From the sequence record SRR22947727_395: DNA of 35,142 nucleotides. One strand, 5' to 3'. Of this stretch, positions 7,014 through 27,382 are shown in pieces. A program made the position numbers and the translations under genes. The notes under the pieces are model-generated. The model was not told the DNA's origin, searched no databases, and worked only from the letters and a program-made list of their open reading frames with translations. Every line of letters begins with the position of its first letter. The stretch's first letter is position 1.

Positions 7014-7042
7014 ATGCTAAAACATGTCTAGTGACATGTAAA
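7014..7042 (-). promoter_or_regulatory. Predicted sigma70 promoter containing perfect operator ACATGTC-TAGT-GACATGT (7022-7039)
   Basis: Minus strand reads TTTACA (7042-7037), 17 nt, TAGCAT (7019-7014). The palindrome fills the spacer. Confidence 0.75.
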
Positions 7043-7253
7043 GTGTCTGCAGAAATACGAATTCAGTTAAGACTGACTTGTCTTCATGGGCTTAGTAAAA
7101 AATAAATGCATAAGTTCTCATTCCCATAGGCATTCGCCAGATAGATAAGCCTGGCAAATAATCTAAGTCATAAATCTACGCAAAGTAAGTGAGGTATGAA
7201 TCCAGACTAGGAATCCATACCAAAGATAATGCCACGCATGCAAGGTGTAACGC

Positions 7254-7814
7254 TTAGGCGTCATCCCCATACGCATAGGTAATAAACTCATGAAATTTCT
7301 CTAGAACTTTGGACGAATCCTTTTCCCACCGCCTGCCGGATCCAACAAAAATTGTTGACCCCTCTGCCAAAGACAGCAGACAAAGCGCTTCAGCGCGGGG
7401 CGATGTGCTTCCAGATTTCTTAAGCAAATCTTCTAGTATTAATATGTACTCAGCGTATATGTCATCAACCAAGTCTGCCACTATAGGATGCACCTGCCCC
7501 ATCGCCCATAACTGCGGCCAAAGTTTGTCTACCTGTAAGTTTCCATCTGCCGGTTGGATCACAACAAGGTTCATCACCGCCTTAATACTGAGCTGCTGAT
7601 TAACTTTCATTAACTCAAACTTACTTCGATATGCCTCACTAGTATAAGCAACCAATGCTCGCAACATATCTTCCCAGGTGGGGAAATGGTATTGCAACCC
7701 ACCCAGCTGAATACCGTTTACGCGGGCCAGAGCTCGCATGGTCAGGTCGCCATAACCTTGATTTACTATAATCTCAATTGCAGCCTGCAGTATCTGTTGC
7801 TTGCGTTCACTCAT
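7254..7814 (-). CDS. TetR/AcrR family transcriptional regulator (paralog 1)
   Basis: N-terminal RKQQILQAA...GY..LTMRALAR..GI.LG.LQYHF helix-turn-helix; 186 aa. Confidence 0.93.
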   Translation of the reverse strand: MSERKQQILQAAIEIIVNQGYGDLTMRALARVNGIQLGGLQYHFPTWEDMLRALVAYTSEAYRSKFELMKVNQQLSIKAVMNLVVIQPADGNLQVDKLWPQLWAMGQVHPIVADLVDDIYAEYILILEDLLKKSGSTSPRAEALCLLSLAEGSTIFVGSGRRWEKDSSKVLEKFHEFITYAYGDDA

Positions 7815-7831
7815 TTAGTCTAGTCCCGTTG

Positions 7832-7874
7832 TTGACATAATAGCCAAAATAAACCAATATGTCGTATGACATGT
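7832..7874. promoter_or_regulatory. Overlapping divergent promoters with operator ATATGTC-GTAT-GACATGT (7857-7874)
   Basis: Minus strand toward tetR1: ACGACA (7865-7860), 17 nt, TATTAT (7842-7837). Plus strand toward the cupin: TTGACA (7832-7837), 17 nt, CAATAT (7855-7860). Operator is a 13/14 match. Confidence 0.7.
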
Positions 7875-8036
7875 TGTCATTGTTTGCCGCCGTAGAGCTC
7901 AGATAGCCGGCATCGGATTCTGAAAAATTTTGATTTGCCAGTCCTTAGTTGCTTTTTGCACGCTAGTTCATGCCTACCTACTCTCTGCCATCGATGCAGC
8001 AGAGCGGCCAATCAACGAAATCCAAGGATAATTATT

Positions 8037-8480
8037 ATGAAAAAATATCTCTTCTTACTCAGTGTACTTCTAAGCGCAACCAGTCTACATAGCCATGCCG
8101 CGCCTGAGGTCTTGCCACTTAAAACCAAAGCGATGCAGACGATGACACTCGACTCTATCCCTCCCTATCGTGCTGAAGATGTGCTTAAAGGAACAGGCGA
8201 GAATTGGCTCAATATTCTTCACCAGGGAGAAGTCATTGTAGCAATCTATGAAGCAAAGCCTGCACTGATCAATATTCAAAATCCATTTCCCTACGATGAG
8301 TTTGTTATGGTCCTTGAGGGTCAAGTGACGCTCACCCATATTAACGGGCAGGTACAAACCTATAACAAAGGTGACAACTTCCTGGTACCAAAGGGATTCC
8401 TGGGGACATGGGATATGCCAGAGCTCTATCGTGAAATGATCGTTATAGAGACCAAAGCATTCAATGCAACCAAAGATTAG
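8037..8480 (+). CDS. Secreted cupin (EutQ-like/DUF861 type)
   Basis: AAGGA RBS before ATG 8037. Signal MKKYLFLLSVLLSATSLHSHA. Cupin motifs FPYDEFVMVLEGQVTL and GDNFLVPKGFLGTW. Confidence 0.85.
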   Translation: MKKYLFLLSVLLSATSLHSHAAPEVLPLKTKAMQTMTLDSIPPYRAEDVLKGTGENWLNILHQGEVIVAIYEAKPALINIQNPFPYDEFVMVLEGQVTLTHINGQVQTYNKGDNFLVPKGFLGTWDMPELYREMIVIETKAFNATKD

Positions 8481-8589: not shown

Positions 8590-8626
8590 TCCGTATATTT
8601 TAAAACCAAACCAACTTCAGCGACCT

Positions 8627-8995
8627 TTATTGCGCAGAGTAGGTGACGTGGATTTTCTTTATTGGGCTCAATTGACGCCAAGTACCATTAAAACCCTTTG
8701 GCATAACAATCGCGTCACCTCGGCCGTAGACTGTTGACTCCCCATCTTCATCGGTGATCTCGACCTGCCCCTCAAGGAAGTACATAAACTCGCTTGTCGG
8801 CCACTCGGTTAACTTCAGGCTGACCTTAGTATATGTAGACATACCAACTTGAAAATTATCATCAGTAGAAATGAAATGTGATAGACCTCCATGCTGAAGA
8901 TTATCGCCATCAATTACTTGCATAAATGTAAGATCTTCAACAGCTTTTAGCTCAACCTGTTCCACATCTGCTGCCTCTAGGTGAATAATCTTCAT
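8627..8995 (-). CDS. Cytoplasmic cupin (EutQ-like/DUF861 type)
   Basis: WPTSEFMYFLEGQVEITD and GDAIVMPKGFNGTW. No signal peptide. GAGGA RBS present. Confidence 0.85.
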   Translation of the reverse strand: MKIIHLEAADVEQVELKAVEDLTFMQVIDGDNLQHGGLSHFISTDDNFQVGMSTYTKVSLKLTEWPTSEFMYFLEGQVEITDEDGESTVYGRGDAIVMPKGFNGTWRQLSPIKKIHVTYSAQ

Positions 8996-9056
8996 GCGGC
9001 ATCCTCAGAGTAACTTAATTATGATCTACAAATGCCATAAGATTGGGCACCGGAGT

Positions 9057-11018
9057 CTATCGCTGCTCACTCGAGGCGTCTGACTCAACACTAAATGCAA
9101 GCAATACATTTCCTGGAGTAGTTCCGAGGATAGCGTAGCCAGATCCCCAGTAAACCATACCATTTACAACCGTAGGTCCTGGCCCACCAACCGATCCACC
9201 GCGACCTTCAATGCCATTAATGCTCTCGTAATCGCGCTTGGAATAATAATCCCATAGCACCCGGCCATCAGCGGTCGAGAAGGCGCGCATAGTCCCATCC
9301 ACTGAGCCCGTAAAAGCAACGCCCGGAATGACGGTAACGGCACCCTGGTTGGCGGAAGTGCAATATTTATTAGCGCTTACTTTAAGTTTGGGCTGATCTT
9401 CAGCGCACTTAGCCGGAGGCGGAATTATGGTTGTCCACACCGCCTCTCCTGTTTCCGGCTTTAGAGCGACTAATCCTCCCTCACCCTCAATGCCCTCGGT
9501 ACTCTCAAATTCCTGATCAGTAGCAAAAGCGAGGGGAACATATAACAGTCTTCCATCGGACGCAGGCCCCAGATTACCGCTGACTCCTGTCGACCGATCA
9601 GAAGGAATATCCTGCCAGATAATGGCACCCTTTTTATCTGGGTCAAGTACCGTCAGACGCCGACTTTCCTGTGATGCCAATAATACCTGTTTGCCGTTTG
9701 CCAAAGTATAAATAATCGGGGGTGCTGATACATCGTCATTGGGGCCTTGCTGTGCACCGGAACAGTATTGTTGTGAACTTTCAGAGCCATCGCAACTAAA
9801 GGCATTAGCATCCTCAGCAAGTAGCTGTTTCGACCAGAGCAATTCGCCTGAACTCAGGTCAAAGGAAAAAATGGCATCACTGGCACCACCATCAGGGACA
9901 GGCATATAGGCGTTCGCTGTACCGACATACACGGCATTGCGTTTTGTATCGATGGTCGGCGCACTCCACACAGCCGCGCCCGATGGGCCATATTGCTGCA
10001 CGCCCAGCTTATTTTTCCACAGCGGTTTAGCTTCCATTGCCAAGGTGGGTACTTTCCAAATTGTCTGCCCAGTGTTAACGTCAAGCACCGCCACACCGCC
10101 GGTCGATGTGCAGCACTCGTAACTGGGATGGGTACTTGCTACCTCTTCCCAAGAGCCAATGGGAACCACAAGACGCTCACCACTGGGATCAAGCACCACG
10201 GAACCACTGACTGCGGCAGCATGATGCTCACCTACCTCAGTGCTCCACAATAGCTTTCCAGTTTGCGCATCAAGGGCGTATACATTGGAGGCAAAATCGC
10301 CAAAATATAGGTTGTAGCGATCGGGTGCATTAGGTCGAGGACCGAGGGTGAGAGAACTGATAACGGGGCGTTTTGATTCAAAAGACCAATGAACACAACC
10401 GGTACTAGCATCCAGCGCATAGACCATACCGTTGTCACTACCCACCCAAAGCCACCCAGCACCGACTATCGGTTGACTGCGCAATGTCGCTGCGCCGGGC
10501 AATGCGAAGGCCCACTTAAGTTTTAAATTTGCAACATCGGCAGCATCCAAACCAGCCGCATCAGCCGCTTGAAAGCGCGCGCTGGTGGTGGGATCTGGAC
10601 TCCAACCAAGCCAATTCGACCCTGTTAATGGATTACCCAGTTTTACACCACTGGGGCAGGCATTGGTCATTGCAGCTGCAGAGCGGTCAGACTCCTCTAT
10701 GGGACGGCCACTTAGCCATTCAGCTATTCTGCGCTTTACATCATCGCCGAGACCCTGAGCAATCACCGACATCTTGCCCACCGTCAACGCATCATAGATC
10801 TTCGCCGCAGGCATTGCTTTGAGATCACTGCGACCGAGCGCTCTCGAACCAGGTTCAGGGCTTTCATGGCAACTAGCACAGTGTGCTTGAAACTCCATCA
10901 TGCCGCGATAATCTGAGGTCTGGGCAAAGCTGAGTGATGAGACCACTGAAAAGACCAATAGAGCAAGGCCTTTCCAGTAGCTATTACGTTGGCAACGAAC
11001 TGTCAGTAATGTTTTCAT
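9057..11018 (-). CDS. Quinohemoprotein dehydrogenase: N-terminal cytochrome c plus PQQ beta-propeller (polyvinyl-alcohol-dehydrogenase-like architecture)
   Basis: Sec signal, CASCH heme c motif, LKLKWAF, repeated ALDAxTGxxxW propeller blades, vicinal cysteines YECC, and GAAVWSAPTID. Confidence 0.88.
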   Translation of the reverse strand: MKTLLTVRCQRNSYWKGLALLVFSVVSSLSFAQTSDYRGMMEFQAHCASCHESPEPGSRALGRSDLKAMPAAKIYDALTVGKMSVIAQGLGDDVKRRIAEWLSGRPIEESDRSAAAMTNACPSGVKLGNPLTGSNWLGWSPDPTTSARFQAADAAGLDAADVANLKLKWAFALPGAATLRSQPIVGAGWLWVGSDNGMVYALDASTGCVHWSFESKRPVISSLTLGPRPNAPDRYNLYFGDFASNVYALDAQTGKLLWSTEVGEHHAAAVSGSVVLDPSGERLVVPIGSWEEVASTHPSYECCTSTGGVAVLDVNTGQTIWKVPTLAMEAKPLWKNKLGVQQYGPSGAAVWSAPTIDTKRNAVYVGTANAYMPVPDGGASDAIFSFDLSSGELLWSKQLLAEDANAFSCDGSESSQQYCSGAQQGPNDDVSAPPIIYTLANGKQVLLASQESRRLTVLDPDKKGAIIWQDIPSDRSTGVSGNLGPASDGRLLYVPLAFATDQEFESTEGIEGEGGLVALKPETGEAVWTTIIPPPAKCAEDQPKLKVSANKYCTSANQGAVTVIPGVAFTGSVDGTMRAFSTADGRVLWDYYSKRDYESINGIEGRGGSVGGPGPTVVNGMVYWGSGYAILGTTPGNVLLAFSVESDASSEQR

Positions 11019-11119
11019 AATGCATCCTAATATATCGATACAATTTTAATTTGGATGAACAATAAAAAATCAATTACCTCTCTCATTACTACTTCATCCG
11101 TTGCACAACTTGGGTTAGA

Positions 11120-13339
11120 TTAGAAGTTCATTCCAACCTTTATACCAGCCCAGCGCGGCATACCCATATTGCCATACACAAAGTCGAGATCCGCTATTCC
11201 GTAGGTGTTGTCAATGTATTCTGTCTCGAAGACATTTTTAACATAGGCTTGCACTTCCCATTTCTCTGAGGCTGACACCCAGAATACCCGCGCATTGACT
11301 AGCGTTTTGGCCTCGCTGTAGTTATATTCATTACCTCCAGCGCCGACACCTTCACTATGGTAAGAAAAGTCGGTTTGCAACGTAACCACAGCGCCATCAT
11401 TTAAAGGAATATTGTAGCTAACCACACCATTAACCATTAAGTCAGGTGATCCAAGCTCTGAACCATCTAGAGTGCGTTCAACACCGTCTGAGGATGTGAT
11501 GACATAGCCTGAATCGGCGCTGATTTCGCTATCCAACCAGCCTATACCCAAGCTCAACTCCAAATTATCTGTTGGCACTGCGAGTAGCTCAAGTTCTACA
11601 CCATAGATATCCGCATCACCAAGACTGATCAAGCGACTGACTGGTGCTGCCGCGTTTGAGTCATAGGTAATGCCCTGCTTATCGGAAACATCCTGATAAA
11701 ACAGTGCCGCATTTAACTGCAGTCGTCCGTCCATTAGTGTGGACTTGCTACCCAGTTCAAACGCAGTTACTTCCTCTGGATCCACTGACGTCATTGCGCT
11801 CAGATCACCAAACAACAAGTCACTGTTGAAATTTCCTGAACGGAAGCCGGTGGACAGGCTAGCATAAATCATCATCTCATCGCGGGGACGCCACTCTAGC
11901 CCCAGTTTACCGGAGAGGTTTTCACTGGTAAGACGATCTGCGCCCGGAAGCCCCTGCGTGGTGAGCTGCACTTTCTTTTCTTCGTCGGTATAACGAAAAC
12001 CAGCCAGCATACTCAGCGTATCGCTTAAAGAGCGGTTAATTTCACCAAACAGCGCATAGGACTTGGTATCGATGTTAGCCATCGTGTCCGGGTTACCGTC
12101 CCCCCATTCATATCCTGCCACACCAGAGGTGGAGCTCCTATCATCATCTAGATAAAACAAACCAATCAGCCAGTTCCTACCTTCATCGCCACCAGATAAA
12201 TGAAACTCTTGTGAAAATTGATCAGCGTCTACTGTGTAGGTATCGTTGTACTGGTATAAGCCGAACATTCCAACTGCGGTGCCATCTTCATCAGCATTGA
12301 AATAACGATCTAGACTATCCAAGGCACTGATTGAAACAAGCTCCATATCGTTATTTAACTGCCAGGTTAGCTTGGCTATTACCGTCTCAGTTTCCAGGGT
12401 ATATCGACCATCGCCCGCACTCGGATCATGCTCAGTATAGGGTTTAGTCACGTCGGGGTTAGGATCGCTAAATTCTGTCAGTCCGAATAGTGCACCACCA
12501 CCAACACATTGGCTGGCTAAGACACGCTTCGCGTCACATACTTCATATGTCTGTGGATCTAGAAGACCCCAGTAGTTAAACGCCTTACCAATATCATCTG
12601 CATCACTGGCTTCCAATGAAAGCAAAAGATTCATGTCATCATTGATATCAATATCCAAATGAGCACGGCCCATTATTCTATCGGTAACGCCCAACTTACC
12701 GCCTGCGGGACCCTGATTGTCTTGGAAGCCATCATCTTGATGATACTTTAACGCCAAGCGGCCACGCACCTGATCACTTATTGGTCCACTAATGGCAGTT
12801 TCAACAATATTGGTGCCATATGAACCATACTCAAAATTGAGATAGCCTTCTTGTTCTTCAGTAGGTTTGCGGGAGATAAAATGCACCAGTCCAGCGGTGG
12901 AATTACGCCCAAATAATGTGCCTTGCGGTCCACGCAAAACCTCGGCACGTTCCAAATCCATCATCACACCACCGCCAAAGAAGGCAGCGGGTCGATACAC
13001 TTCATCAAAATACAAAGCAACGTTATCCTCTCCCGCAAGTGTGGGGTTTAATGTTGAGTTGCCGCGTATGGTGATGTCCGCAGAAAATGAACCCTCGTTA
13101 GAGGAGACATTGGGTATTTGCGAAAAAATATCTCGCGTATCCTCAAAACCAAAGGCATCAATCTTATCGCCACTCAAGGCAGTCATAGAGACGGAGATAT
13201 CTTGCAGACTCTGCGTCCGTTTTGTTGCCGTCACTAGGATTTCTTCAATACCATTGAAGCTTTCTTCTGCGGTAGCTGGAACGTTCACAGCCAATAGCGC
13301 AGCAAAAACTCCCGTCAGAGCCAATTTATTGTTAGTCAT
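11120..13339 (-). CDS. TonB-dependent receptor 1
   Basis: Signal peptide, TonB box IEEILVTATKR, plug motif ERAEVLRGPQGTLFGRN and C-terminal Phe. GAGGGG RBS before ATG 13339. Confidence 0.95.
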   Translation of the reverse strand: MTNNKLALTGVFAALLAVNVPATAEESFNGIEEILVTATKRTQSLQDISVSMTALSGDKIDAFGFEDTRDIFSQIPNVSSNEGSFSADITIRGNSTLNPTLAGEDNVALYFDEVYRPAAFFGGGVMMDLERAEVLRGPQGTLFGRNSTAGLVHFISRKPTEEQEGYLNFEYGSYGTNIVETAISGPISDQVRGRLALKYHQDDGFQDNQGPAGGKLGVTDRIMGRAHLDIDINDDMNLLLSLEASDADDIGKAFNYWGLLDPQTYEVCDAKRVLASQCVGGGALFGLTEFSDPNPDVTKPYTEHDPSAGDGRYTLETETVIAKLTWQLNNDMELVSISALDSLDRYFNADEDGTAVGMFGLYQYNDTYTVDADQFSQEFHLSGGDEGRNWLIGLFYLDDDRSSTSGVAGYEWGDGNPDTMANIDTKSYALFGEINRSLSDTLSMLAGFRYTDEEKKVQLTTQGLPGADRLTSENLSGKLGLEWRPRDEMMIYASLSTGFRSGNFNSDLLFGDLSAMTSVDPEEVTAFELGSKSTLMDGRLQLNAALFYQDVSDKQGITYDSNAAAPVSRLISLGDADIYGVELELLAVPTDNLELSLGIGWLDSEISADSGYVITSSDGVERTLDGSELGSPDLMVNGVVSYNIPLNDGAVVTLQTDFSYHSEGVGAGGNEYNYSEAKTLVNARVFWVSASEKWEVQAYVKNVFETEYIDNTYGIADLDFVYGNMGMPRWAGIKVGMNF

Positions 13340-13398
13340 AGATTTCCCCTCATAATCTAAAATTTTGATTGCTATAGTAAGCACAGTCCAAATACGCG

Positions 13399-13450
13399 AG
13401 CCTATTCAAAGCACTCCGACATGTCAAATGACATATGTCACGTGACATGC
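13399..13450 (-). promoter_or_regulatory. Sigma70 promoter of TBDR1 with two overlapping operators (13419-13436 and 13433-13450)
   Basis: Minus strand reads TTGACA (13427-13422), 17 nt, TAGGCT (13404-13399). Operators are ACATGTC-AAAT-GACATAT and ATATGTC-ACGT-GACATGC. Confidence 0.8.
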
Positions 13451-18771: not shown

Positions 18772-18914
18772 CAGCTTATTTGGGTGGGAATGAATATCAA
18801 AATATTAAAAATAAAATCGAGAACAGCGTCTCTATAAAGGCCTTTTAAGCTCTGTAAAGACTTGAGCTGGACTCAAAAAGCGTTTTCTTTAGAATAGATG
18901 AGGAGATAATTATA

Positions 18915-20015
18915 ATGAAAATTCAAGCTGCAGTAGTCCGCGAACAATCAGGGCCCTTTGACGTATCCGAACTGGATCTGGCTGAACCTAAAGACGATGA
19001 GGTATTGGTTAAGATCGTTGGCGTAGGTATATGCCACACTGATCTTGTTTGCCGCGATCAGTATTTTCCGGTGCCTTTGCCCTGTGTTTTTGGTCACGAG
19101 GGTAGCGGCATTATCGAGAAAGTAGGCCGCCAGGTCGTCGGCTTTGAGAAAGGTGATCATGTTGCGGTTTCATATAAAACATGTGGTAGCTGCGAACCCT
19201 GTTTGCAGGGACAAATTGGTTATTGTCATGGCCTCTATGAGCACAACTTTAACGGCACCCGGCCTGACGGCAGTAGTGCCCTGAGTGAGAATGGTGAGAC
19301 CGTGCACGGGCATTTCTTTGCCCAGAGTTCCTTTGCCTCCCACGCCCTCTGTCATGCTTCAAATCTGGTTAAGGTCGATCACAGTCTACCCCTAGAACTA
19401 CTCGGCCCACTGGGCTGTGGAATACAGACGGGCGCTGGGGCAGTAATGAATGCCCTTAAACCACAGGCGGGCACATCTATTGCGATTTTCGGCGCCGGTA
19501 CGGTTGGTCTAAGTGCTGTGATGGCTGCTCATATCGTAGGTTGCGGCACTATCATAGCGATCGATCTGAAGGATGATCGGTTGGCTACAGCAACTGAACT
19601 GGGTGCAACACATACAATCAATGCCAGTGATAACGATGTAGTCACCAAAATTCATGAAATAACTGGTTCAGGTACCCATTTCTCTCTCGAATGTACGGGT
19701 ATACCCCAGGTTGCACGTCAGGCTGTAGATTGCCTGACACTAACCGGTGTTTGTGGCGTTATGGGCGTGTCGCCAGCCGGTACCGAATTCAATCTGGATA
19801 TGAACTCGGTACTCTTCGGTCGCTCGGTGCGCGGCATTATTGAAGGCGACAGTGTGCCTAGAGTTTTTATACCGCGGCTGATTGACCTGTACCAGCAGGG
19901 TCGATTCCCTTTCGATAAATTGATCAGCACCTATTCGTTTGCCGACATCAACCAGGCGGTTGAGGACGTTGAATCTGGAAAAGTTATCAAGCCGGTACTC
20001 CTAATGGACGCATGA
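18915..20015 (+). CDS. Zn-dependent aryl/allylic alcohol dehydrogenase (XylB/AreB/GeoA group)
   Basis: CHTDLVCRDQ, GHEGSG, structural Zn CGSCEPC...C, LLGPLGCGIQTGAGAV, GAGTVG and FPFDKLI; 366 aa. AGGAG RBS present. Confidence 0.92.
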   Translation: MKIQAAVVREQSGPFDVSELDLAEPKDDEVLVKIVGVGICHTDLVCRDQYFPVPLPCVFGHEGSGIIEKVGRQVVGFEKGDHVAVSYKTCGSCEPCLQGQIGYCHGLYEHNFNGTRPDGSSALSENGETVHGHFFAQSSFASHALCHASNLVKVDHSLPLELLGPLGCGIQTGAGAVMNALKPQAGTSIAIFGAGTVGLSAVMAAHIVGCGTIIAIDLKDDRLATATELGATHTINASDNDVVTKIHEITGSGTHFSLECTGIPQVARQAVDCLTLTGVCGVMGVSPAGTEFNLDMNSVLFGRSVRGIIEGDSVPRVFIPRLIDLYQQGRFPFDKLISTYSFADINQAVEDVESGKVIKPVLLMDA

Positions 20016-20138: not shown

Positions 20139-21509
20139 CTACCGCGCTGGTAATTTTTTACGAGTGACTAAAAAGAGCAGAGCCCCTAGCAATGACCATC
20201 CAATAATAATGATCCATTCCTGTGGCCAAAGCAGCGCTGACGGGCTGCCAGGCATATAGAGAAAAGCCAAACATATAGAGAGTATCAAGGCGAGTATTCC
20301 TATAAAGTACCCAAACGGTACTTTATAAGGTCGCTCTAAATCTGGCTCTTTGAAACGCAAAATCAGGAAAGACAGCGCAACCATGGCATAGGCAACGACA
20401 ATACCCAGACCTCCTGCATTTACCAACCATACCAGTACCGGTCGACCGAAAAAAGGCCCAATGATTGACAGGGCACCTATCAGTAAGATCGCATTGTAAG
20501 GAGTGCGATATTTTGGATGTAACTTGCCAAGAGCTGCAGGTAATAGGTTTGCACGTGCCAAAGCATAGATCGCCCTGCTACCCCCGATAATAAATGCATT
20601 CCAACTAGTCAGTATACCTGCGAGACCTGCGCCTAACATGGCCAAGCGGCCAGCTTCGCCAAACACCACGGAATTGGCTTCCGCTACTATAATCTCTGAA
20701 GTTGCAAATTCCTCTTTATTGAGTACCAAGCTTACACCTAGAACCATTAGCACATACCAAGCAACAGCCATTGCAACTGATAACATCAAAACCGACCCTA
20801 TTTCCCTATAAGGTAAATCAATTTCTTCTGCCGCCTGAGGAATAGTATCGAAACCGACGAACATAAAAGGAACCATAACCAATACCAGGGTAATGCCCGA
20901 TAAGCCATCAACAAAAAGTGGTTCCATGTTGGCAGTATCGCCATTGGCCAGAGATCCTAATACAAACAAACCGCCAACTAAAAGGATAACAATGACTACT
21001 GCTGATTGAACGACGGCAGCCATACGGACACCACGTACATTTAATATGGTCATGGTAACCGCGCCTGCAACACCTACTAACACCCAGCTAAGGTAAACAT
21101 CCCACCCCGCGATTTGCCAGAGAAAGATTTTATCCAGCCCTGGTAATAGAGCATCGAGAACTGTAGGCAAGGCTACTGCCTCAAATGTAACCACAGAGAC
21201 ATAACCAAGAATAACTGCCCAGGTACAGATAAAGGAGCAGCCTGCTCCCATAGCGCGATGACTATAGACATGCTCCCCTCCGGCAAAGGGTAGTGCAGAA
21301 GCAAGCTCAGCATAGGTAAGGCCAATGACTAGCATAATACCGCCGCCAATAAGAAAAGCAGTAATAGCTCCAATGGCACCGGCTGATTCAATCCAAACGC
21401 CAGACAGCACGACCCAGCTCCAGCCGATCATCGCGCCAAAGGCTAAAGCTAAAGCGTCTCGCCGACCAAGTACGCGTAAAAAATTTTGTTGTTCGCCAAA
21501 TGAACCCAT
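20139..21509 (-). CDS. APC-family amino acid/amine permease
   Basis: About 12 TM helices, GAMIGWSW, YAELASALPFAGGE, FVGFD and RPYKVP. Probable start is ATG 21509, because the track start at 21533 lies inside the operator. Confidence 0.92.
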   Translation of the reverse strand: MGSFGEQQNFLRVLGRRDALALAFGAMIGWSWVVLSGVWIESAGAIGAITAFLIGGGIMLVIGLTYAELASALPFAGGEHVYSHRAMGAGCSFICTWAVILGYVSVVTFEAVALPTVLDALLPGLDKIFLWQIAGWDVYLSWVLVGVAGAVTMTILNVRGVRMAAVVQSAVVIVILLVGGLFVLGSLANGDTANMEPLFVDGLSGITLVLVMVPFMFVGFDTIPQAAEEIDLPYREIGSVLMLSVAMAVAWYVLMVLGVSLVLNKEEFATSEIIVAEANSVVFGEAGRLAMLGAGLAGILTSWNAFIIGGSRAIYALARANLLPAALGKLHPKYRTPYNAILLIGALSIIGPFFGRPVLVWLVNAGGLGIVVAYAMVALSFLILRFKEPDLERPYKVPFGYFIGILALILSICLAFLYMPGSPSALLWPQEWIIIIGWSLLGALLFLVTRKKLPAR

Positions 21510-21516
21510 AGCGCAA

Positions 21517-21545
21517 AGAATAGCACATGTCACTCGACATGTTCA
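21517..21545 (-). promoter_or_regulatory. Permease promoter with perfect operator ACATGTC-ACTC-GACATGT (21525-21542)
   Basis: Minus strand reads TGAACA, 17 nt ending TGC, then TATTCT (extended -10), 7 nt before the ATG. Confidence 0.75.
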
Positions 21546-21707: not shown

Positions 21708-22268
21708 TTAGGCGTCACCACCATAGAGTTTATCGACCAGATCATAGACTACCGAGCGAATCTTAGCGCTATCATTTTCCCAACGTTTGCCCGGGGCTAC
21801 AAAAACGGTTGTTCCCTCTATGAAAGACATTAGAGTAACAGATTCAATGCGAGGGTTCTTACTTCCAGCCTTGTGGAGTAAACCCTCCAGAATCTGCAAA
21901 TATTCAGCATAGATATCGTCAACCAGATCGGCCACTAATGGCTCCACCTGACCCATGGCCCAGAGTTGTGGCCAAAGTTTATCCGCCTGTAACCTTCCAT
22001 CTGCTGGTTCCGACGAAGCGAATTCCAAGAACCCTTTGATAGTTAGCGGCTCATTAGCTTTTACAGCATCAAAATTGCTGTGGTATATGTCAGCAATATA
22101 AGCCACCAATGCACGCAACATATCTTCCGAGGTTCGAAAATGATACTGCAAAGCACCTAGCTTAATACCGCTAGCTCGAGCTAGGGCCCGCATGCTTAGG
22201 CTGCCATAGCCCTCATCAATAATAATATCAACCGCTGCCTGTAATATCTGCTGTTTGCGCTCACTCAT
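21708..22268 (-). CDS. TetR/AcrR family transcriptional regulator (paralog 2)
   Basis: Same 186-aa length as 7254-7814, with HTH LSMRALARASGIKLGALQYHF. About 60% identical by manual ungapped count. Confidence 0.93.
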   Translation of the reverse strand: MSERKQQILQAAVDIIIDEGYGSLSMRALARASGIKLGALQYHFRTSEDMLRALVAYIADIYHSNFDAVKANEPLTIKGFLEFASSEPADGRLQADKLWPQLWAMGQVEPLVADLVDDIYAEYLQILEGLLHKAGSKNPRIESVTLMSFIEGTTVFVAPGKRWENDSAKIRSVVYDLVDKLYGGDA

Positions 22269-22375: not shown

Positions 22376-23011
22376 CTAAGTCAATTTTCGGTCAGCTGTA
22401 ACGCCGCGAGACTTAATATTGGCAGCCAGGCGCAAAATAAGTGCCAGCAAGCCCAAGACAGCAAAGACAACATCTATTGTCTTTGCATTTTGACTTAGGG
22501 CCTGCTCGGTATAACTCACCCAGATCGCCGCCCAGAAGTACCAGATACCTACCCAATGCAGCCAACTCCATTGGGCGCGACTTAATTTTCGACGCATTGG
22601 ATAAAATGAAGTAACGGTTAGTGCCAATAAAAGGACATAGCTAAGGCTTCGCCCCACAAGATCGCTGGTCTTATGCAACTCATCCCAGTAATAGGCGGGG
22701 TATAAATCCAGTAGCACTGCGATAAAGACCGCCTGCCAGGCAAATCCAGCTGCAAAGGATAAACCGGTATAACGGCGGTTTCTTAACAACCACTGTGAAA
22801 TAGCACCTGGAAAAAGCGTTACCAGGGCTGATGTCACAAAGGCGATAAGTATCCAGGGAGAGGCAAACTGCACAGATAGACGTATCAATTTGACTGTGGC
22901 TTCAGGCGAGGAGATACCTATGATCAGCATCCCGGCAACCATGCCGCCAAGGGTCAACAGCGCAATCAGGTAAAAAAGCGGCCAACCATTCAATACCCTG
23001 TATTGGAGCAA
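22376..23011 (-). CDS. Ferric-reductase-like / MsrQ(YedZ)-like transmembrane protein
   Basis: Six hydrophobic helices with NRRYTGLSF, LALTVTS and WSWLHWVGIWY motifs typical of this domain. TTG start is 2 nt after the upstream stop. Confidence 0.7.
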   Translation of the reverse strand: MLQYRVLNGWPLFYLIALLTLGGMVAGMLIIGISSPEATVKLIRLSVQFASPWILIAFVTSALVTLFPGAISQWLLRNRRYTGLSFAAGFAWQAVFIAVLLDLYPAYYWDELHKTSDLVGRSLSYVLLLALTVTSFYPMRRKLSRAQWSWLHWVGIWYFWAAIWVSYTEQALSQNAKTIDVVFAVLGLLALILRLAANIKSRGVTADRKLT

Positions 23012-23013
23012 GG

Positions 23014-24885
23014 TCAGCTGACTACCTCCCCCACAGCACGAATCGACGCATCAATCGCCGACTGCACATAGGCATAGGCCTCGGAGTCAGAATTGGCAAT
23101 GCTGATTCGGCCAAAGGGCTGTCGTCCAAGCTCGTGAGGTGCCTGCCCTGGTTCCCAACGCGGGTCATGAAGATCCATATATTCATAGGCATAGCCATGG
23201 GACCAACGATTAATGGTAATGGCCTCAATATCCCTATCAGCATCAAAACCGGCCTCACCAAACATACCGGTAAGCTGATGTCGAATTTCTCGCTCATAGT
23301 CAGCAAATGAGGTGGCCATTATTTTGTGCCTGCCAAGCCGACAGAGATCGCGCCCAGATTGTTTACCATCACCCTCTGGTGCAGGCATATGCAGCATATA
23401 CATCACCATGGGGTCGTTCGGTTTGGTTGAAACCTGGTAAGCCCCCAAATTCACGGGCGGTGCGTGGGTGACCAACTCAAAAAAGGTATCAGCACAGACA
23501 TAGAGGGATGCACCACTTTTTCGCACGGGCGCACTGGTTTTAAGCACCACATTGGCACTGATAAAAGGAACTTTGGAACCATAGGCCAGATTTTGTTTCT
23601 GCGTCTCAGGTAGGTCTGGGCAGAGATGTGGAATCATGCCGTTGTATCCGGCAAGGATGCAATGCCTTCCCTGCACCCTAAAGGCACGATCGCCAGACAC
23701 ATAGGAAATATCGACCAGGTCTGAGCCCCTATTGGCAACATTAACCACCGTGCTATTTAAACGAATGCGCACTGGAGCATCTTGCAAATCCAATTGGGAA
23801 TAATCAAAACGACTGGCAACCAACTCCTCCATTGAATCGGCGCCCGCCACCTGAGGGATAAGTTTATTCACAAATAGTCTTGCCACAGAGGCATTACCAT
23901 CGGGGAAAATAGGTGAGCGGTACGCGTTGGGGTCCTCTGGCACATCAGACTCCCCATCTGATTCTGGGAAGCCCATGGCGTTGGCCCCAGGTGCTCCCAA
24001 CTCGATTGCTTCCATAATTGATGCACTGTTAATACCTACGCCCCATATAGCTCGAACCCAGGGTTCTGTTAATTTGGCGCCCTGCTTGGAGAGGCCAACT
24101 CGTTCATTGAGAAACCTGGCATATGAAGTGCTGCGCATATAGGTTTCTTTATCGGACAGGGGAATATCCGGCAAATAGTCTTTCTCACCACTGACCAGAG
24201 CAATCAGACGGCTAGTATCAGTGTTCGATAAATCCAGTGACTTAATCATCGCTTTATAGTCACCAGCACCCGCCCATGTGGACCCCCAATCACCTGAGAT
24301 AATAGTATCTTTGCCATACAGATTTTTATTCAAATAGATACCATAGGGCGCGGCTGCATTTGACAGCGGATAGTCATCTGGCCCTGCATCTTGCAGTGCT
24401 TTAAAGTCAACACCAATATCTTCAAGAACCTGATAGGCGCCGGCACTAAAAGCAGACTGCTCGAGGTTGAGACTACCGCCAGGACCCAGCAACATTTTGC
24501 CCGAAGACTCAAATTCGTTGCGCTTTGCATGGCCACCGAAATCATCATGGTTATCCAGCACTAGAATCTTTACATCGGGTCCCATTTGCTCCTTGTAGAG
24601 ATAAGCCGCAGACAGACCGCTTATGCCGCCGCCCACAATCACCAGATCATAAAGTTCATCTACTGGCTCATACTGTTCAGGTCTCTGCCCCCCCATAACC
24701 AGTGCGTGAGCTACTTCAAAGGACCCTTTGTGACTTCCGCGCATGCCTGTCAGCAGCGGTGGATAATACTCTGTGCCCTTAGCTGTGGTGCTGAATGCAA
24801 GAGAACTGTAAGGCGCAAGGGCGGTGGCCGCCACAGATAAGGCGGCACCATTTAAAAAATCTCGTCTGGTTATTTTATCTCTCAT
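23014..24885 (-). CDS. Tat-exported FAD oxidoreductase, spermidine dehydrogenase (SpdH)-like, paralog 2
   Basis: ITRRDFLNG Tat signal, YYPP.LTGMRGSH.GSFEVAH, DLVIVGGGISG, NHDDFGGHAKRNEF, FPDGNASVAR, NRWSHGYAY and GRISIANSDS. Confidence 0.88.
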   Translation of the reverse strand: MRDKITRRDFLNGAALSVAATALAPYSSLAFSTTAKGTEYYPPLLTGMRGSHKGSFEVAHALVMGGQRPEQYEPVDELYDLVIVGGGISGLSAAYLYKEQMGPDVKILVLDNHDDFGGHAKRNEFESSGKMLLGPGGSLNLEQSAFSAGAYQVLEDIGVDFKALQDAGPDDYPLSNAAAPYGIYLNKNLYGKDTIISGDWGSTWAGAGDYKAMIKSLDLSNTDTSRLIALVSGEKDYLPDIPLSDKETYMRSTSYARFLNERVGLSKQGAKLTEPWVRAIWGVGINSASIMEAIELGAPGANAMGFPESDGESDVPEDPNAYRSPIFPDGNASVARLFVNKLIPQVAGADSMEELVASRFDYSQLDLQDAPVRIRLNSTVVNVANRGSDLVDISYVSGDRAFRVQGRHCILAGYNGMIPHLCPDLPETQKQNLAYGSKVPFISANVVLKTSAPVRKSGASLYVCADTFFELVTHAPPVNLGAYQVSTKPNDPMVMYMLHMPAPEGDGKQSGRDLCRLGRHKIMATSFADYEREIRHQLTGMFGEAGFDADRDIEAITINRWSHGYAYEYMDLHDPRWEPGQAPHELGRQPFGRISIANSDSEAYAYVQSAIDASIRAVGEVVS

Positions 24886-24891
24886 TAATAA

Positions 24892-25335
24892 TTACTCTTC
24901 GCCTGCTACCCAGGCTTTGGTTTCAATAATAATCATCTCGCGAAACTTAACGGGCATATCCCAGGTTCCCTGCCAACCTTTTGGCACAAGAAAGCTATCT
25001 CCCACATCATAAGTCTGCTTTTCACCAGATAGAGAAGTAAGAATAACCTTGCCTTCCAAGACCGTCACAAACTCATCATAGGCAAACGGATAGCTCACAT
25101 CTATCAGAGCGGCCTCGGACTCATAAAGTGCGACCACAAAATCACCTTTATGCACCACTTTTTGCCAGTGCTCATTGGCGCCTGATAGGACCACCCCTTT
25201 TGGCCAAGGCGGAATAGACTCCAGCTCAGTCATCCTGAAGGCGTCCTTATCTAAGGGCAAAACGTCAATCACGGGTTGCGCCGATATTTGCATCGCAGCC
25301 ATAAATAAGGCTGCTAATAAATAAAATTTTTTCAT
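24892..25335 (-). CDS. Secreted cupin (EutQ-like/DUF861 type), paralog of 8037-8480
   Basis: Signal MKKFYLLAALFMAAMQISA; FAYDEFVTVLEGKVIL and GDSFLVPKGWQGTWDMP. Confidence 0.87.
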   Translation of the reverse strand: MKKFYLLAALFMAAMQISAQPVIDVLPLDKDAFRMTELESIPPWPKGVVLSGANEHWQKVVHKGDFVVALYESEAALIDVSYPFAYDEFVTVLEGKVILTSLSGEKQTYDVGDSFLVPKGWQGTWDMPVKFREMIIIETKAWVAGEE

Positions 25336-25380
25336 TGTTTACTCCATTTTCAGTTTTTGTCAGTGTTTTTATCAATCGGC

Positions 25381-27294
25381 TCAAGAGGGTTTTGCCGTTT
25401 GTTCTTCTACTGCCCGCCAAGCCGCGTCAAAAGCGGCTTGCATTAGGGGCATGGCCTCTGAATCAGAATTGGCAATTGAGATACGTCCAAATTGTGCCCG
25501 GCCAATCTCATGGGGTGCATGCCCCTCATCCCAGTCGGGATCATCAAGCCCCAGATAAGAGTAGGCATAACCATGGGGAATCCGATTAACTGTAATTGCC
25601 GTTATATCAGTCTTGTGATTAAAGCCATACTGACCCAGCATTCCCTGAAGCTGATCGCGAATCTGCTGCTCATAGTCTTTAAATGATGTGCCATAAATCT
25701 TGTAGCGACCCAGCCTAAATAGCTCACGCGCAGGCATATCTTTAATATCTGCTGGCGCAGGTGAGGCCATCATAAAGACAGCCATTGGATCGTCCTCGGT
25801 CTGAGGTGGCTGATAGCCCCCTGATGTTACTGTGGGCGCAGCGCTCACCCATTGAAAAGGATCATAGGGACATTGAGTAAAAGTCGTCTCAAGGCCAGCA
25901 AAGGCTCGACCATTTTTTAGCAGCACATTGGCATAGACAAAGGGCACCTTCACGCCATAGCTCAAACCGTCTTTTTGCTCTTGGCTCATGTCGGGGCAAA
26001 GATGTGGAATAAGCCCGTTATAACAAGCCAGAACACAGTGGTCTGCACTGACGCTAAAGGGCTGGCCTTGCTGAACATAATCGACCTTTACATGGTTTAC
26101 ATCTGTCTCTTTTACCCCTACCACTGTGCTATTGAGTCTCAAACGAGTCGGATTACTGTCAAGGTCCAAAGCTGCGTAGTTAAAGTCCGAAATGGCAACA
26201 TCTTCAAAGCCCTTCATAGCCGGTGCAACATCAGGAATTAACTTATGGACCAATAATCGGGCAACCGACGCATCGCCATCAGGAAACATATAGGCCACGG
26301 GAGCGTCCCCTAAAACAAAAGCGCCGGCGAGATCGCTGAGTCGATTGGTCAGCCAGCCCATAGCTTTTAGACCGGGGCAACCAGTACTCAGGGCTTCCAG
26401 GACTGTAAGGCTCCACCCCGCCGGGCCTAATAAAACACTGGTAAAAGCCCCCAGTATGGGCAAGGTTTCCTCAGCTAAACCAACGCGCTCGGTCAAAAAT
26501 TGGTTGTAACTGACGGACTTCACGTATCTGTATTGCTCCAAGAGAGACAAATCATCGAGGAAGTCTCGATCACCACCGAAAAAGGCAATCAACTTAGTCT
26601 GCTCTTCCTCAGGTATGGGCAACTCTTTAACCGCCGCCTCATATCCTTGACCCCCATGGATAAACCCTAACCAGTTGCCACTTAGGGTTTTATGGCCATC
26701 CGTAGTAGGAATCGTCATACCATTATTGGCGCTAATTTTGCCACCGAGCATATAATCATCAGGCGTATTGGCTGTCATTGCAGCTAGAGCCTGATCGTCA
26801 ATACCTATATCTTTTAATAATTCAACCGCCATTGCGCTATATGACGACATAGGCTCGATATTTTGAGCCCCACCCAAACCAAGTACCATATTCCCATCTT
26901 GATGAAATTCATTGCGCTTTGCATGCCCTCCAAAGTCATCGTGGTTGTCCAACAATAGTATCTTTGCGGTAGGGCCCATTTTCTTTCGGTAATACCAGGC
27001 AGCGGCCAGACCGCTCTGTCCTGCGCCTACAACTATTAGGTCATAGTGCTCATCTAATTCTTCATAACTGGACGGTTTTTGTCCATTCCAAGCTAGTGCA
27101 TGAGCAACCTCATAGGATCCCTCATGACTTCCGCGCATACCGGTCAGAGTCGGGGGATAATAATCACCGGGAGATTTTTTAGCGGCTATCGATCCAGCAG
27201 GTTGCGCGATAAGTTGTCCCGGCATCAAAAGGCTTGCACCGGCACCAATAGCGACACCATTAAGAAAATCCCTTCGCGTTATTTTAGAAGTCAT
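25381..27294 (-). CDS. Tat-exported FAD oxidoreductase, spermidine dehydrogenase (SpdH)-like, paralog 1
   Basis: ITRRDFLNG, YYPPTLTGMRGSHEGSYEVAH, VVGAGQSG, NHDDFGGHAKRNEF, NRIPHGYAY and GRISIANSDS. Confidence 0.88.
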   Translation of the reverse strand: MTSKITRRDFLNGVAIGAGASLLMPGQLIAQPAGSIAAKKSPGDYYPPTLTGMRGSHEGSYEVAHALAWNGQKPSSYEELDEHYDLIVVGAGQSGLAAAWYYRKKMGPTAKILLLDNHDDFGGHAKRNEFHQDGNMVLGLGGAQNIEPMSSYSAMAVELLKDIGIDDQALAAMTANTPDDYMLGGKISANNGMTIPTTDGHKTLSGNWLGFIHGGQGYEAAVKELPIPEEEQTKLIAFFGGDRDFLDDLSLLEQYRYVKSVSYNQFLTERVGLAEETLPILGAFTSVLLGPAGWSLTVLEALSTGCPGLKAMGWLTNRLSDLAGAFVLGDAPVAYMFPDGDASVARLLVHKLIPDVAPAMKGFEDVAISDFNYAALDLDSNPTRLRLNSTVVGVKETDVNHVKVDYVQQGQPFSVSADHCVLACYNGLIPHLCPDMSQEQKDGLSYGVKVPFVYANVLLKNGRAFAGLETTFTQCPYDPFQWVSAAPTVTSGGYQPPQTEDDPMAVFMMASPAPADIKDMPARELFRLGRYKIYGTSFKDYEQQIRDQLQGMLGQYGFNHKTDITAITVNRIPHGYAYSYLGLDDPDWDEGHAPHEIGRAQFGRISIANSDSEAMPLMQAAFDAAWRAVEEQTAKPS

Positions 27295-27353
27295 CTTTTA
27301 CCAGCCCTTATTGTTGGTTTATTAGTGCTCTGCATTTATTTTGCCTTTTTTGC

Positions 27354-27382
27354 ATTACATGTCGAATGACATGTGTTACGTT
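27354..27382 (+). promoter_or_regulatory. Perfect operator ACATGTC-GAAT-GACATGT (27357-27374) between the divergent spdH-like and iorAB-like operons, within a predicted iorA promoter
   Basis: Plus strand reads ATTACA (27354-27359), 17 nt ending TGT, then TACGTT (27377-27382). Confidence 0.78.

Follow-up and report, generated by a model that had tools for sequence, protein, structure and literature searches.

In Pseudomonas aeruginosa, the regulators of polyamine metabolism include PauR and, for agmatine, AguR. This organism also provides the SpdH pathway as a described system of spermidine cleavage (PDB 7d9f-7d9j). Outside polyamine metabolism, the closest descriptions concern the TetR family, whose TetR/tetO paradigm is represented by regulators such as QacR and EilR, the latter with eilO DNA (PDB 5vl9), while BetI and a TetR regulator of Saccharomonospora viridis (PDB 4kwa, 4ich, 4nel, and 4jnn) sense small cationic amines, a property that fits an amine inducer for the locus considered here. 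For SCO3201, a TetR/AcrR-type regulator of Streptomyces coelicolor, a "reverse" induction mechanism has been proposed, and spermidine was only tentatively modelled as its ligand, with the true ligand unknown in that work (PMC10087246).

The window, that is, the whole stretch of 35,142 nucleotides analysed (SRR22947727_395), comes from a marine SAR92-type bacterium, in which the palindrome ACATGTC-N4-GACATGT is most likely a docking site for two related TetR repressors. The palindrome is probably the operator of a conserved TetR subfamily, represented here by two paralogs, through which an island of approximately 31 kb (1356-31926) would be switched. Within the island, each gene belongs to a same-strand run, taken as an operon, that has a site at its head (Table 1).

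Table 1. Candidate operators, regulators, and gene runs of the island, in window coordinates
Feature	Position	Strand	Remark
Acetylpolyamine amidohydrolase homolog, island edge	327..1328	+	promoter beyond left window edge
DUF4386-like membrane protein, acyl-CoA ligase, aldehyde dehydrogenase, alpha/beta hydrolase, 204-aa protein	1356..6941	-	headed by O1
O1, perfect operator	7022..7039	.	81 bp upstream of DUF4386-like membrane gene
TetR1, 186 aa	7254..7814	-	TetR_N domain; recognition helix K36Q and A39G vs family consensus
O2, 1-mismatch operator	7857..7874	.	divergent TetR1/cupin promoter region
Cupin A	7935..8480	+	likely true start is internal ATG preceding signal peptide
TonB-dependent receptor 1, PQQ/cytochrome c dehydrogenase, cupin	8627..13384	-	
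Operator pair 13419-13436 and 13433-13450, 4-base overlap	13419..13450	.	upstream of TonB-dependent receptor 1
TonB-dependent receptor 2	13792..16059	-	
Weak auxiliary copy, 7.6 bits	16112..16129	.	beside strong 16132 site
Operator	16132..16149	.	73 bp upstream of TonB-dependent receptor 2
Operator	16216..16233	.	53 bp upstream of Ldi-family gene
Ldi-family protein (signal peptide), DsbA-like protein, Zn alcohol dehydrogenase	16286..20015	+	
APC-family amino-acid/amine permease	20139..21509	-	
Perfect operator	21525..21542	.	16 bp upstream of likely permease ATG (21509)
TetR2, 186 aa, last gene of SpdH operon	21708..22268	-	TetR_N domain; nine-helix model
SpdH operon: SpdH-like 2 (Tat), periplasmic cupin, SpdH-like 1 (Tat), 211-aa membrane protein; then TetR2	22376..27294	-	
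Perfect operator	27357..27374	.	divergent region: SpdH operon (-) / 2Fe-2S-molybdopterin oxidoreductase operon (+)
2Fe-2S subunit, molybdopterin subunit (Tat signal), acyl-CoA ligase-like gene	27439..31926	+	

The sequence-only reading had counted nine copies of the palindrome, a tally that is better given as eight strong copies and one weak copy, since the ninth, at 16112, carries five mismatches and scores only 7.6 bits. The three perfect copies (7022, 21525, and 27357) were recovered against an expectation of 0.00 in 100 dinucleotide shuffles of the window, and the estimate that a match of this kind arises by chance about 1e-4 times per 35 kb is arithmetically correct. The five copies described as near-perfect are indeed so, with one mismatch at 7857 and at 13419 and two each at 13433, 16132, and 16216. 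When up to three mismatches were allowed, the window scan returned nine matches (shuffle mean 1.46, maximum 5). The only genic one, at 5464 inside the acyl-CoA ligase gene, has three mismatches and stands at chance level (-1.1 bits), and all eight strong copies are intergenic, as had been observed, and spread over seven promoter regions, with an intergenic share of the window of about 7.5% by summed lengths. At 21525, the mechanical open reading frame 20139-21533 overlaps the site by 9 bases, but translation probably begins at the ATG at 21509, which leaves 16 bp between site and start. Under a matrix built from those same sites, the eight strong sites score 25-27.6 bits. The best independent position outside the training set is 16112, 20 bp from the strong 16132 site; position 13426 reaches 10.0 bits but falls within the overlapping 13419/13433 pair and is hence not independent.

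Conservation beyond the window refines the motif. Among 35 sites from relatives in several bacterial families, conservation of each half-site letter is 95-100%, compensatory changes are absent, and the spacer begins with A (67%) or G (31%) and ends with T (67%) or C (31%). The tendency of the spacer towards A-N-N-T is therefore real and widens to R-N-N-Y, giving the family consensus aCATGTC-R-N-N-Y-GACATGt. This pattern bears on a very improbable reading, in which the palindromes are hairpin terminators, REP-like repeats, or binding sites for PhoB or another global regulator. A simple scan did mark two copies as terminator-like hairpins, and the half-site contains TGTCA, which resembles a Pho-box repeat. 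A Pho box, however, consists of direct repeats of a 7-base unit with an 11-bp period, whereas the units here are inverted without exception, both in the 8 window sites and in the 35 from relatives, and the PhoB site was rejected. The intrinsic terminator and the REP-like hairpin were also rejected: the sites precede genes or occupy divergent promoter regions rather than gene ends, their letters are fixed, and in a complete relative genome (G001) all five matches fall in one locus, unlike REP elements or a global regulon. The structural or global reading is disfavoured.

The overlap of the sites with predicted -35 and -10 boxes suggests repression, the promoter hexamer matches themselves being weak (9/12) and no commoner than in shuffles. 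O1 lies within the spacer of a predicted minus-strand promoter, TTTACA-N17-TAGCAT, and a frame of the form TTTACA-N17-TAG(C/G/T)AT surrounds the operator 5' of the DUF4386-like gene in six of seven aligned loci. Hexamers resembling a -35 box occur inside the operators at 7857 (ACGACA) and 27357 (TCGACA); the former is the right half of O2 and the predicted -35 box. The far end of O2 is 60 bp upstream of the ATG of TetR1, which upholds the earlier placement of a copy on the tetR1 promoter, and the copy at 27357 does head the operon that ends in tetR2. Downstream of the TetR2 stop, at a distance of 166 bp, comes the site at 21525..21542.

By domain, predicted fold, and operator position, the two regulators of the window are putative TetR-family transcriptional repressors. 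They are paralogs with 61% identity, match PF00440 (TetR_N) with 29.7 bits for TetR1 and 38.7 bits for TetR2 (cut-off 24), and are the only proteins of the cluster with a recognisable DNA-binding domain; a search for a helix-turn-helix in the three cupins gave none, even at E up to 5. Among motif-carrying orthologs, the recognition helix KLGALQYH(F/Y) is near-invariant. Because the recognition helices of these paralogs are nearly alike, TetR1 and TetR2 probably read the same site, although the two substitutions of TetR1 in an otherwise near-invariant helix mean that its binding may be different or weaker. The AlphaFold2 model of TetR2 (pLDDT 90.4) contains nine helices, and all the structural neighbours listed by Foldseek are TetR-type regulators, with TM values up to 0.79; the best full-length ones (TM 0.76-0.79) represent a TetR regulator crystallised with choline, benzamidine, and a dimethylamine compound. 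Sequence relatives in the PDB extending past the helix-turn-helix region were not found, the best match (E 4.9e-8) covering residues 3-66, and a BetI-type C-terminal domain is matched weakly (E 4.5e-4), under the Pfam cut-off. A pocket of the amine type may be taken from these models as a lead only.

The association between regulator and motif was evaluated in 30 loci (415,123 bases) fetched by TetR2 homology alone. In 23 of these loci, 37 sites of at least 18 bits were found, compared with 0 for the reversed matrix, and at a threshold of at least 15 bits there were 41 real sites compared with 0-1 in ten shuffles. The geometry is also fixed: 12 loci have a site whose start precedes the TetR ATG by 35-77 bp, often paired near 62 and 40 bp, and ten site pairs are spaced exactly 22 bp; the 60-bp position of the TetR1 site in the window matches that of its closest orthologs. 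Sites were absent from L029 and L026, whose TetR homologs are complete but only 31-38% identical, in the former of which the recognition helix differs, and from a locus with a TetR match of only 50 residues (L030, 42% identity). Two further loci (L017 and L018) encode TetR orthologs, and no site of at least 18 bits was present on the locus DNA scanned. All computational tests, including the co-occurrence in 23/30 loci and the fixed geometry in 12, agree with the earlier proposal that the motif is the operator of the local TetRs.

The scan of relatives that had been suggested with the motif found matches confined to the orthologous locus and not scattered. In G001, all 5/5 matches to CATGTCRNNYGACATG with at most one mismatch lie within 504827-520744, the 16-kb orthologous locus (control, 1), and in a second genome (G002) 4/4 genome-wide matches lie within the orthologous locus. 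Across 121 genomes of the family, the exact motif occurs in 10, with 18 sites, against 1 site for the control. Genomes with at least two sites (5/121) are exactly those that encode an SpdH ortholog at 80% identity or more, and a TetR ortholog (E <=1e-30) is present in 4/5 of these multi-site genomes and in 0/116 others; sites are lacking in the 11 genomes of this sample whose sole SpdH relative is a distant paralog (37-41% identity). Direct observation covers the sites, where they lie, how they are conserved, and that they occur together with TetR and SpdH orthologs.

Some genomes depart from this linkage and are relevant to a different, very unlikely reading, in which the palindrome is a real operator of another regulator encoded outside the window and the TetRs control other targets or only themselves. 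In a third genome (G003), the two exact matches precede an SpdH homolog by 29 bp and a DUF4386-like homolog by 7 bp, the other 4/17 matches being intragenic and scoring at most 15.6 bits. About 1 Mb separates both sites from the TetR homolog of this genome (52% identity), which is without a site of its own, which means that the linkage between TetR and site is not universal. In G115, a fragmented draft, three sites are present and a TetR was not found with the query used. Against an outside regulator stand the fixed position upstream of the TetR start codon, the conservation of the recognition helix along with the motif, the restriction of TetR orthologs in the family sample to genomes with at least two sites, and the lack of any further DNA-binding domain found in the cluster. 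It is likely, judged from sequence, that the motif marks a real local TetR regulon. The word "local" in the earlier description holds for related whole genomes, the only ones in which locality was shown.

The function of the island is putatively polyamine uptake and oxidation, an assignment based on 3 of approximately 24 genes. SpdH-like 2 matches 7d9i with E 1.6e-125 over residues 5-631 of 637, and SpdH-like 1 is its paralog, with 45-49% identity (tblastn) to the SpdH-like 2 orthologs of relatives; by homology both are of the SpdH type and would be putative enzymes of spermidine or spermine cleavage. The product of 327..1328 is, by full-length homology (6phr, E 2.8e-131; 3q9b, E 3.8e-128), a putative acetylpolyamine amidohydrolase, and its counterpart in G001 stands behind a gene for an NhaC-like transporter that has a site at its head. 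The core conserved across families comprises SpdH, a cupin, the DUF4386-like protein, a CoA ligase, and an aldehyde dehydrogenase.

An alternative that deserves some weight, while being unlikely, is that the TetRs bind the site and the island serves another amine or amide, for example one derived from algae or terpenoids, which would then be the inducer. The Ldi-family protein (Pfam E 2.6e-79), the DsbA-like protein, the PQQ and Zn alcohol dehydrogenases, the alpha/beta hydrolase, and two CoA ligases fall outside known polyamine routes, and TonB-dependent receptors are not known to import polyamines. A pathway of this kind is also absent from the available portion of a polyamine review. On the other side are the two full-length SpdH homologs, the amidohydrolase homolog, and the conserved core, and the Ldi/PQQ/TonB module, which G001 and G002 lack, is an add-on.

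With a polyamine-type island as the preferred reading, we infer binding, repression, inducer, and substrate as follows. Each 7-base half-site would be contacted by one helix-turn-helix of a TetR dimer, as the two centres are 11 bp, or about one helical turn, apart. Bound at operators that coincide in part with the -35 box, the -10 box, or the spacer between them at seven promoter regions, the repressor would block RNA polymerase, and both TetR genes would be under their own control, TetR1 through its own operator and TetR2 through the SpdH operon. Release would follow the binding of an inducer in the C-terminal pocket, presumably an amine substrate or intermediate such as spermidine, spermine, an acetylated or longer polyamine, or a breakdown product. 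The products then made would include two TonB-dependent receptors, a permease, two Tat-exported SpdH-type spermidine dehydrogenases, and periplasmic cupins, together with a PQQ dehydrogenase, a molybdopterin aldehyde oxidoreductase, an aldehyde dehydrogenase, and CoA ligases.

Compared with known systems, this would be an ordinary type of switch placed on a little-studied pathway. With the TetR/tetO paradigm, the locus shares the TetR_N helix-turn-helix, the nine-helix fold, and what appears to be a palindromic operator overlapping the promoter of own or adjacent genes in a pattern of autoregulation; that paradigm usually involves a single divergent promoter, whereas here one operator type is found at seven promoter regions with two paralogous repressors. 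The consensus was not met in literature searches made by topic. BetI and the S. viridis regulator are the best full-length structural neighbours, and the window TetRs share with BetI a weak C-terminal domain match and weak NCBIfam matches. Identity of TetR2 to the solved choline-type regulators is only 19-21%, the target genes differ, and the choline-responsive BetI itself (NCBIfam TIGR03384) was rejected because 27.2-27.9 bits is far under the equivalog cut-off of 201.3. SCO3201 offers a precedent for the possible accommodation of an aliphatic polyamine in a TetR-family pocket (PMC10087246); its targets are unrelated and it is not among the PDB sequence matches of the window TetR. TetR control of spdH was not found in the literature searched. 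The P. aeruginosa SpdH pathway resembles the island in its SpdH enzyme, present here as two full-length homologs, and in an aldehyde dehydrogenase for the aminoaldehyde product, as given in the available portion of the review. It differs in that SpdH is duplicated here amid TonB-dependent receptors, cupins, a DUF4386-like protein, and a molybdopterin oxidoreductase, with the whole set under a putative TetR operator.

The 18-bp palindrome ACATGTC-N4-GACATGT, which recurs in the island of putative polyamine uptake and oxidation genes at 1356-31926, is very probably the operator of the two TetR repressors predicted there and, judged by sequence comparison, would define a local regulon. Its occurrence, as described in the sequence-only reading, is confirmed by counting: three copies are perfect, compared with none in 100 dinucleotide-preserving shuffles, and nine matches with at most three mismatches are present in the window, compared with an average of 1.46 and at most 5 in shuffles. 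Eight of these nine matches belong to the copies listed in that reading, and the ninth, at 5464, lies within the acyl-CoA ligase gene and scores -1.1 bits, which is at chance level. Using a symmetrised matrix of 22 columns trained on the eight window copies, a scan of the whole window assigned 25.3-27.6 bits to these copies, followed by 7.6 bits for the best other independent position, the 'degenerate' copy at 16112 (20 bp from the strong 16132 site), and by 4.6 and 3.4 bits for two intragenic positions; since the eight copies were also the training set, this score gap is in part circular. The nine copies originally counted are better described as eight strong ones and a weak one.

All eight strong sites are located in intergenic DNA, which accounts for ~7.5% of the window by summed lengths. 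The mechanically called ORF of the permease overlaps the site at 21525 by nine bases, and its start is more plausibly the in-frame ATG at 21509, 16 bp past the site. Same-strand gene runs, presumably corresponding to operons, cover every gene between 1356 and 31926, with a site preceding the first gene of each run. Two other mechanical starts, TTG 7935 of cupin A (7935-8480) and GTG 13384 of receptor 1 (start region 13339-13384), are probably too early, and signal-peptide-like sequences (MKKYLFLL... and MTNNKLAL..., respectively) follow internal ATGs. In the intergenic region between receptor 2 and the Ldi-family gene, a run of eight G occupies 16195-16202; contigs from two RNA libraries show insertions of C after 16202 and of TT after 16089 that presumably reflect strain variation.

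Genes and palindrome copies of the window, with gene identities based on Pfam and NCBIfam scans and on comparison with solved structures
Feature	Position	Strand	Placement or remark
NhaC-like transporter gene, 3' end	2 to about 100		left edge of the window
Acetylpolyamine amidohydrolase homolog			after the NhaC-like transporter gene; E 2.8e-131 to 6phr
Run: DUF4386-like membrane protein (248 aa), acyl-CoA ligase, aldehyde dehydrogenase, alpha/beta hydrolase, 204-aa protein	6195-6941 (DUF4386-like gene)	minus	DUF4386-like label is a protein-atlas lead only
TetR1, then a cupin	7254-7814 (TetR1)	minus (TetR1)	right of the DUF4386-like run; TetR1 186 aa
Run: TonB-dependent receptor 1, PQQ/cytochrome c dehydrogenase, cupin		minus	
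TonB-dependent receptor 2			right of the receptor 1 run
Run: Ldi-family protein, DsbA-like protein, Zn alcohol dehydrogenase		plus	
APC-family permease			between the Ldi run and the SpdH operon
TetR2	21708-22268	minus	186 aa; end of the SpdH operon
Operon: SpdH-like dehydrogenase 2, cupin, SpdH-like dehydrogenase 1, 211-aa membrane protein, TetR2	22376-27294 up to the 211-aa gene (22376-23011), TetR2 as above	minus	SpdH-like: spermidine dehydrogenase homolog
Run: 2Fe-2S subunit, molybdopterin subunit, second CoA-ligase-like gene		plus	
guaA, guaB	32070-35084		beside the island end
Palindrome, perfect copies	7022, 21525, 27357		
Palindrome, other strong copies	7857, 13419, 13433, 16132, 16216		

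Among the products of these genes, SpdH-like 2 is a full-length match to the spermidine dehydrogenase of Pseudomonas aeruginosa (E 1.6e-125). As read by eye, twin-arginine motifs stand at the start of the molybdopterin subunit and of both SpdH-like proteins, and the cupins, like the PQQ enzyme and the Ldi-family protein, have N-termini that resemble signal peptides, so that the oxidative steps are predicted to be periplasmic. The two multi-pass membrane proteins of 248 and 211 residues found no match in a sequence search of solved structures and nothing in Pfam at E up to 1, except that the 211-aa protein gave a sub-threshold ECF_trnsprt match (E 0.0095; 16.4 bits, cut-off 30.7). Their genes adjoin SpdH genes across bacterial families, and the proteins could be electron acceptors or product transporters of the periplasmic dehydrogenases.

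The conservation of the site can be assessed at 30 loci obtained by scanning with TetR2 against one genome per prokaryotic species, for which the selection criterion was protein homology and not the motif, and which belong by record titles to Porticoccaceae/SAR92, Halieaceae, Spongiibacteraceae, and Pseudomonadales. In 415,123 bases, 37 sites of at least 18 bits were found in 23 of the 30 loci, compared with none for the reversed matrix; at 15 bits or more there were 41 real sites, compared with 0-1 in each of ten block-shuffles. The seven loci with no strong site comprise L029 and L026, with complete TetR homologs at 31-38% identity, L030, where the match covers 50 residues at 42% identity, the 1.8-kb fragment L024, L017 and L018, whose TetR orthologs are 53-55% identical, and L020, which has sites elsewhere in its genome. 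The recurrent neighbours of the sites encode SpdH-like, cupin, DUF4386-like, CoA ligase, aldehyde dehydrogenase, and TonB-dependent receptor proteins and the 2Fe-2S/molybdopterin pair. The TetR start codon is preceded at 12 loci by a site that starts 35-77 bp upstream of it, frequently one of two at about 62 and 40 bp, and a spacing of exactly 22 bp is observed in ten site pairs across loci. The 35 sites of the more distant loci yield the consensus aCATGTC-R-N-N-Y-GACATGt, in which six core letters per half-site are 95-100% fixed with no compensatory changes, a pattern with the look of a protein-read site, not of a hairpin.

Whether the motif is local was assessed in related genomes. In G001, a complete genome of 2.69 Mb whose TetR2 is 92% identical, the 10-base core ATGTC-N4-GACAT occurs seven times, five of them within 504828-520743, compared with one occurrence of the control. 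With at most one mismatch, CATGTCRNNYGACATG occurs five times in G001, all within the 16-kb locus stretch, four times in the draft genome G002, all in two locus-bearing contig ends, and four times each in the relatives G003 and G004. Both exact matches in G003, which served as a blind test of prediction, lie upstream of homologs of island genes, 29 bp from SpdH (66% identity) and 7 bp from DUF4386-like (68%); the TetR homolog of this genome is ~1 Mb away from them and lacks its own site. The four off-locus matches in G003 and G004, considered as regulon members, were rejected, all being inside long ORFs and scoring at most 15.6 bits. In a sample of 121 genomes of the family of G001, the exact 16-mer gave 18 sites in 10 genomes, and the backwards control gave one. 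Five genomes (G001, G002, G107, G115, and G119) have at least two sites, and SpdH orthologs of at least 80% identity occur in precisely these five; a TetR ortholog (E <=1e-30) was found in four of them and in none of the other 116. The exception, G115, is fragmented, and two of its three sites lie directly upstream of the SpdH and 2Fe-2S/molybdopterin genes. Sites are absent from all 11 genomes whose sole SpdH homolog is a distant paralog (37-41% identity); G001 itself encodes a third SpdH paralog of 39% identity (C1:577447-579336), 57 kb from the locus and with no operator. The matches of the five single-site genomes were likewise discarded as regulon members, as no homolog of a window protein adjoins any of them; the scores are 13.8-20.0 bits for three and below 12 for one, and the fifth, at a contig end, has no score. 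This distribution indicates that the motif is confined to, or tracks, the orthologous locus with this TetR and SpdH subfamily and is not scattered, which supports the earlier interpretation of an operator bound by the local TetRs and defining a local regulon.

Comparison of window 6942-21700 with the corresponding locus (L002, G001 509943-511501) reveals a mosaic organization. Both G001 and G002 are devoid of ~6942-21700, namely TetR1, cupins, the PQQ dehydrogenase, both receptors, the Ldi/DsbA/alcohol dehydrogenase genes, and the permease, and in them a site comes immediately after TetR2, together with the DUF4386-like, CoA ligase, and aldehyde dehydrogenase genes; the window can thus be regarded as combining two modules, both with operators and each with a different TetR paralog. 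At G001 519311-520744, a 26.4-bit site heads an NhaC-like transporter gene, in a divergent promoter region common with a MatE gene. Because window 1-326 starts inside the 3' end of such a transporter gene, ahead of the acetylpolyamine amidohydrolase gene, there may be an additional operator just beyond the left edge of the window. The SpdH operon of G001 is flanked by rhodanese-like, amidohydrolase, and homocysteine S-methyltransferase genes, and in the window the island ends beside guaA/guaB, so the neighbourhood of the island differs in close relatives.

As to the candidate binder, Pfam and NCBIfam scans recognise a DNA-binding domain in the two TetRs only; a cupin acting as a PuuR-like regulator was ruled out, with no HTH in the cupins even at E up to 5. 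TetR1 and TetR2 are 61% identical across all 186 residues, and the recognition helix KLGALQYH(F/Y) is near-invariant in motif-bearing orthologs and differs in L029, whose homolog is 31% identical. Within residues 32-39, helix 2 of TetR1 carries VN in place of AS, and its recognition helix carries K36Q and A39G, two substitutions at positions 90% or more conserved among 26 orthologs and unchanged even in the closest ones (L006-L008). The binding of TetR1 may differ from, or be weaker than, that of TetR2. Operator variants specific to the TetR1 module, with imperfect outer bases, were rejected because G001 and G002, each with one TetR, have TATGTC-type sites at the receptor promoter.

With its half-site centres 11 bp apart, the palindrome spans about one helical turn between them, a spacing that suits one TetR dimer contacting successive major grooves. 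This mode of contact is also treated in PMC10087246. At the promoter of the DUF4386-like gene, TTTACA-N17-TAG(C/G/T)AT frames the operator in six of seven aligned loci, the window included, and the spacer of a sigma-70-like promoter is thus taken up by the site. In the sites at 7857 and 27357, a -35-like hexamer (ACGACA and TCGACA, respectively) is contributed by the right half-site; in TetR1-type promoters, as read by eye, there is a conserved TA(T/G)TAT 17 bases downstream, which another half-site, ATGTCAA, overlaps. The hexamer matches are weak and, in simple promoter scans, alone no commoner than in shuffles, and they were used only where conserved across loci. Both regulator placements proposed from sequence hold: the site on the TetR1 promoter (7857) has its far end 60 bp from the TetR1 ATG, a distance identical in the three closest TetR1-type orthologs, and the operon headed by 27357 has TetR2 as its last gene, with no site detected by the matrix scan in the 107-bp gap before TetR2. 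We infer that the TetRs would repress by promoter occlusion at the operators and regulate themselves, TetR1 through its own site and TetR2 as a member of the operon. In six RNA libraries, 40-74% of the sampled words of 6900-16300 are present, and contigs from four of these (three studies) cover 26-29 of 30 bins, spanning operators and divergent promoters, although such contigs carry no transcript start, strand, or level and DNA can be present in RNA libraries.

Several features provide a lead towards an amine as the presumed inducer. The predicted TetR2 model (pLDDT 90.4, nine helices) has as its best full-length structural neighbours (TM 0.76-0.79, 19-21% identity) a TetR regulator crystallised with choline, benzamidine, and a dimethylamine compound; BetI-type matches of the TetRs are sub-threshold; and the ligand domain contains an invariant motif rich in aromatic and acidic residues, D-x-LWPQLWAM. 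We consider it fairly likely that the substrate of the pathway is a polyamine or a derivative, and evenly balanced whether such a compound is also the inducer. A broader proposal is doubtful, namely that the TetRs are polyamine sensors of abundant coastal marine gammaproteobacteria (SAR92/Porticoccaceae, Halieaceae, and Spongiibacteraceae), gating an undescribed route by which polyamines, perhaps long-chain or acetylated and derived from phytoplankton, would cross the outer membrane via TonB-dependent receptors and be oxidised in the periplasm by Tat-exported SpdH paralogs with cupin, DUF4386-like, and molybdopterin partners. If it is true, the operator-repressor pair would be a metagenomic marker of the pathway and might be usable as a polyamine biosensor.

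A single operator of 18 bases and two predicted repressors would tie ~24 genes, many of them with no assigned role, into one unit centred on spermidine dehydrogenases in bacteria common in coastal blooms, which offers a handle on the marine consumption of dissolved organic nitrogen as polyamines, a working context for uncharacterised families (DUF4386-like, periplasmic cupins, Ldi-family, and TonB-dependent receptors), and a compact pair for reporter or biosensor work. Even if the substrate is not a polyamine, the operator still defines genes that work together.

In the literature accessible without subscription, no TetR controlling spdH and no account of this regulator or operator was found, Porticoccaceae included. 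A sequence search of solved structures gave no relatives of the TetRs past the HTH region, and their scores of 27-28 bits against a cut-off of 201 distinguish them from BetI. According to the available portion of a review, the P. aeruginosa SpdH route converts spermidine to 1,3-diaminopropane and 4-aminobutanal, followed by aldehyde dehydrogenases; as far as that portion goes, this route leaves the receptors, cupins, Ldi-family protein, and CoA ligases of the window unexplained, whereas its core of SpdH and aldehyde dehydrogenase matches that of the window. With the TetR family, the predicted repressor/operator system shares domain, fold, and operator placement; the switch is of a textbook type, and the added value lies in a precise, testable map.
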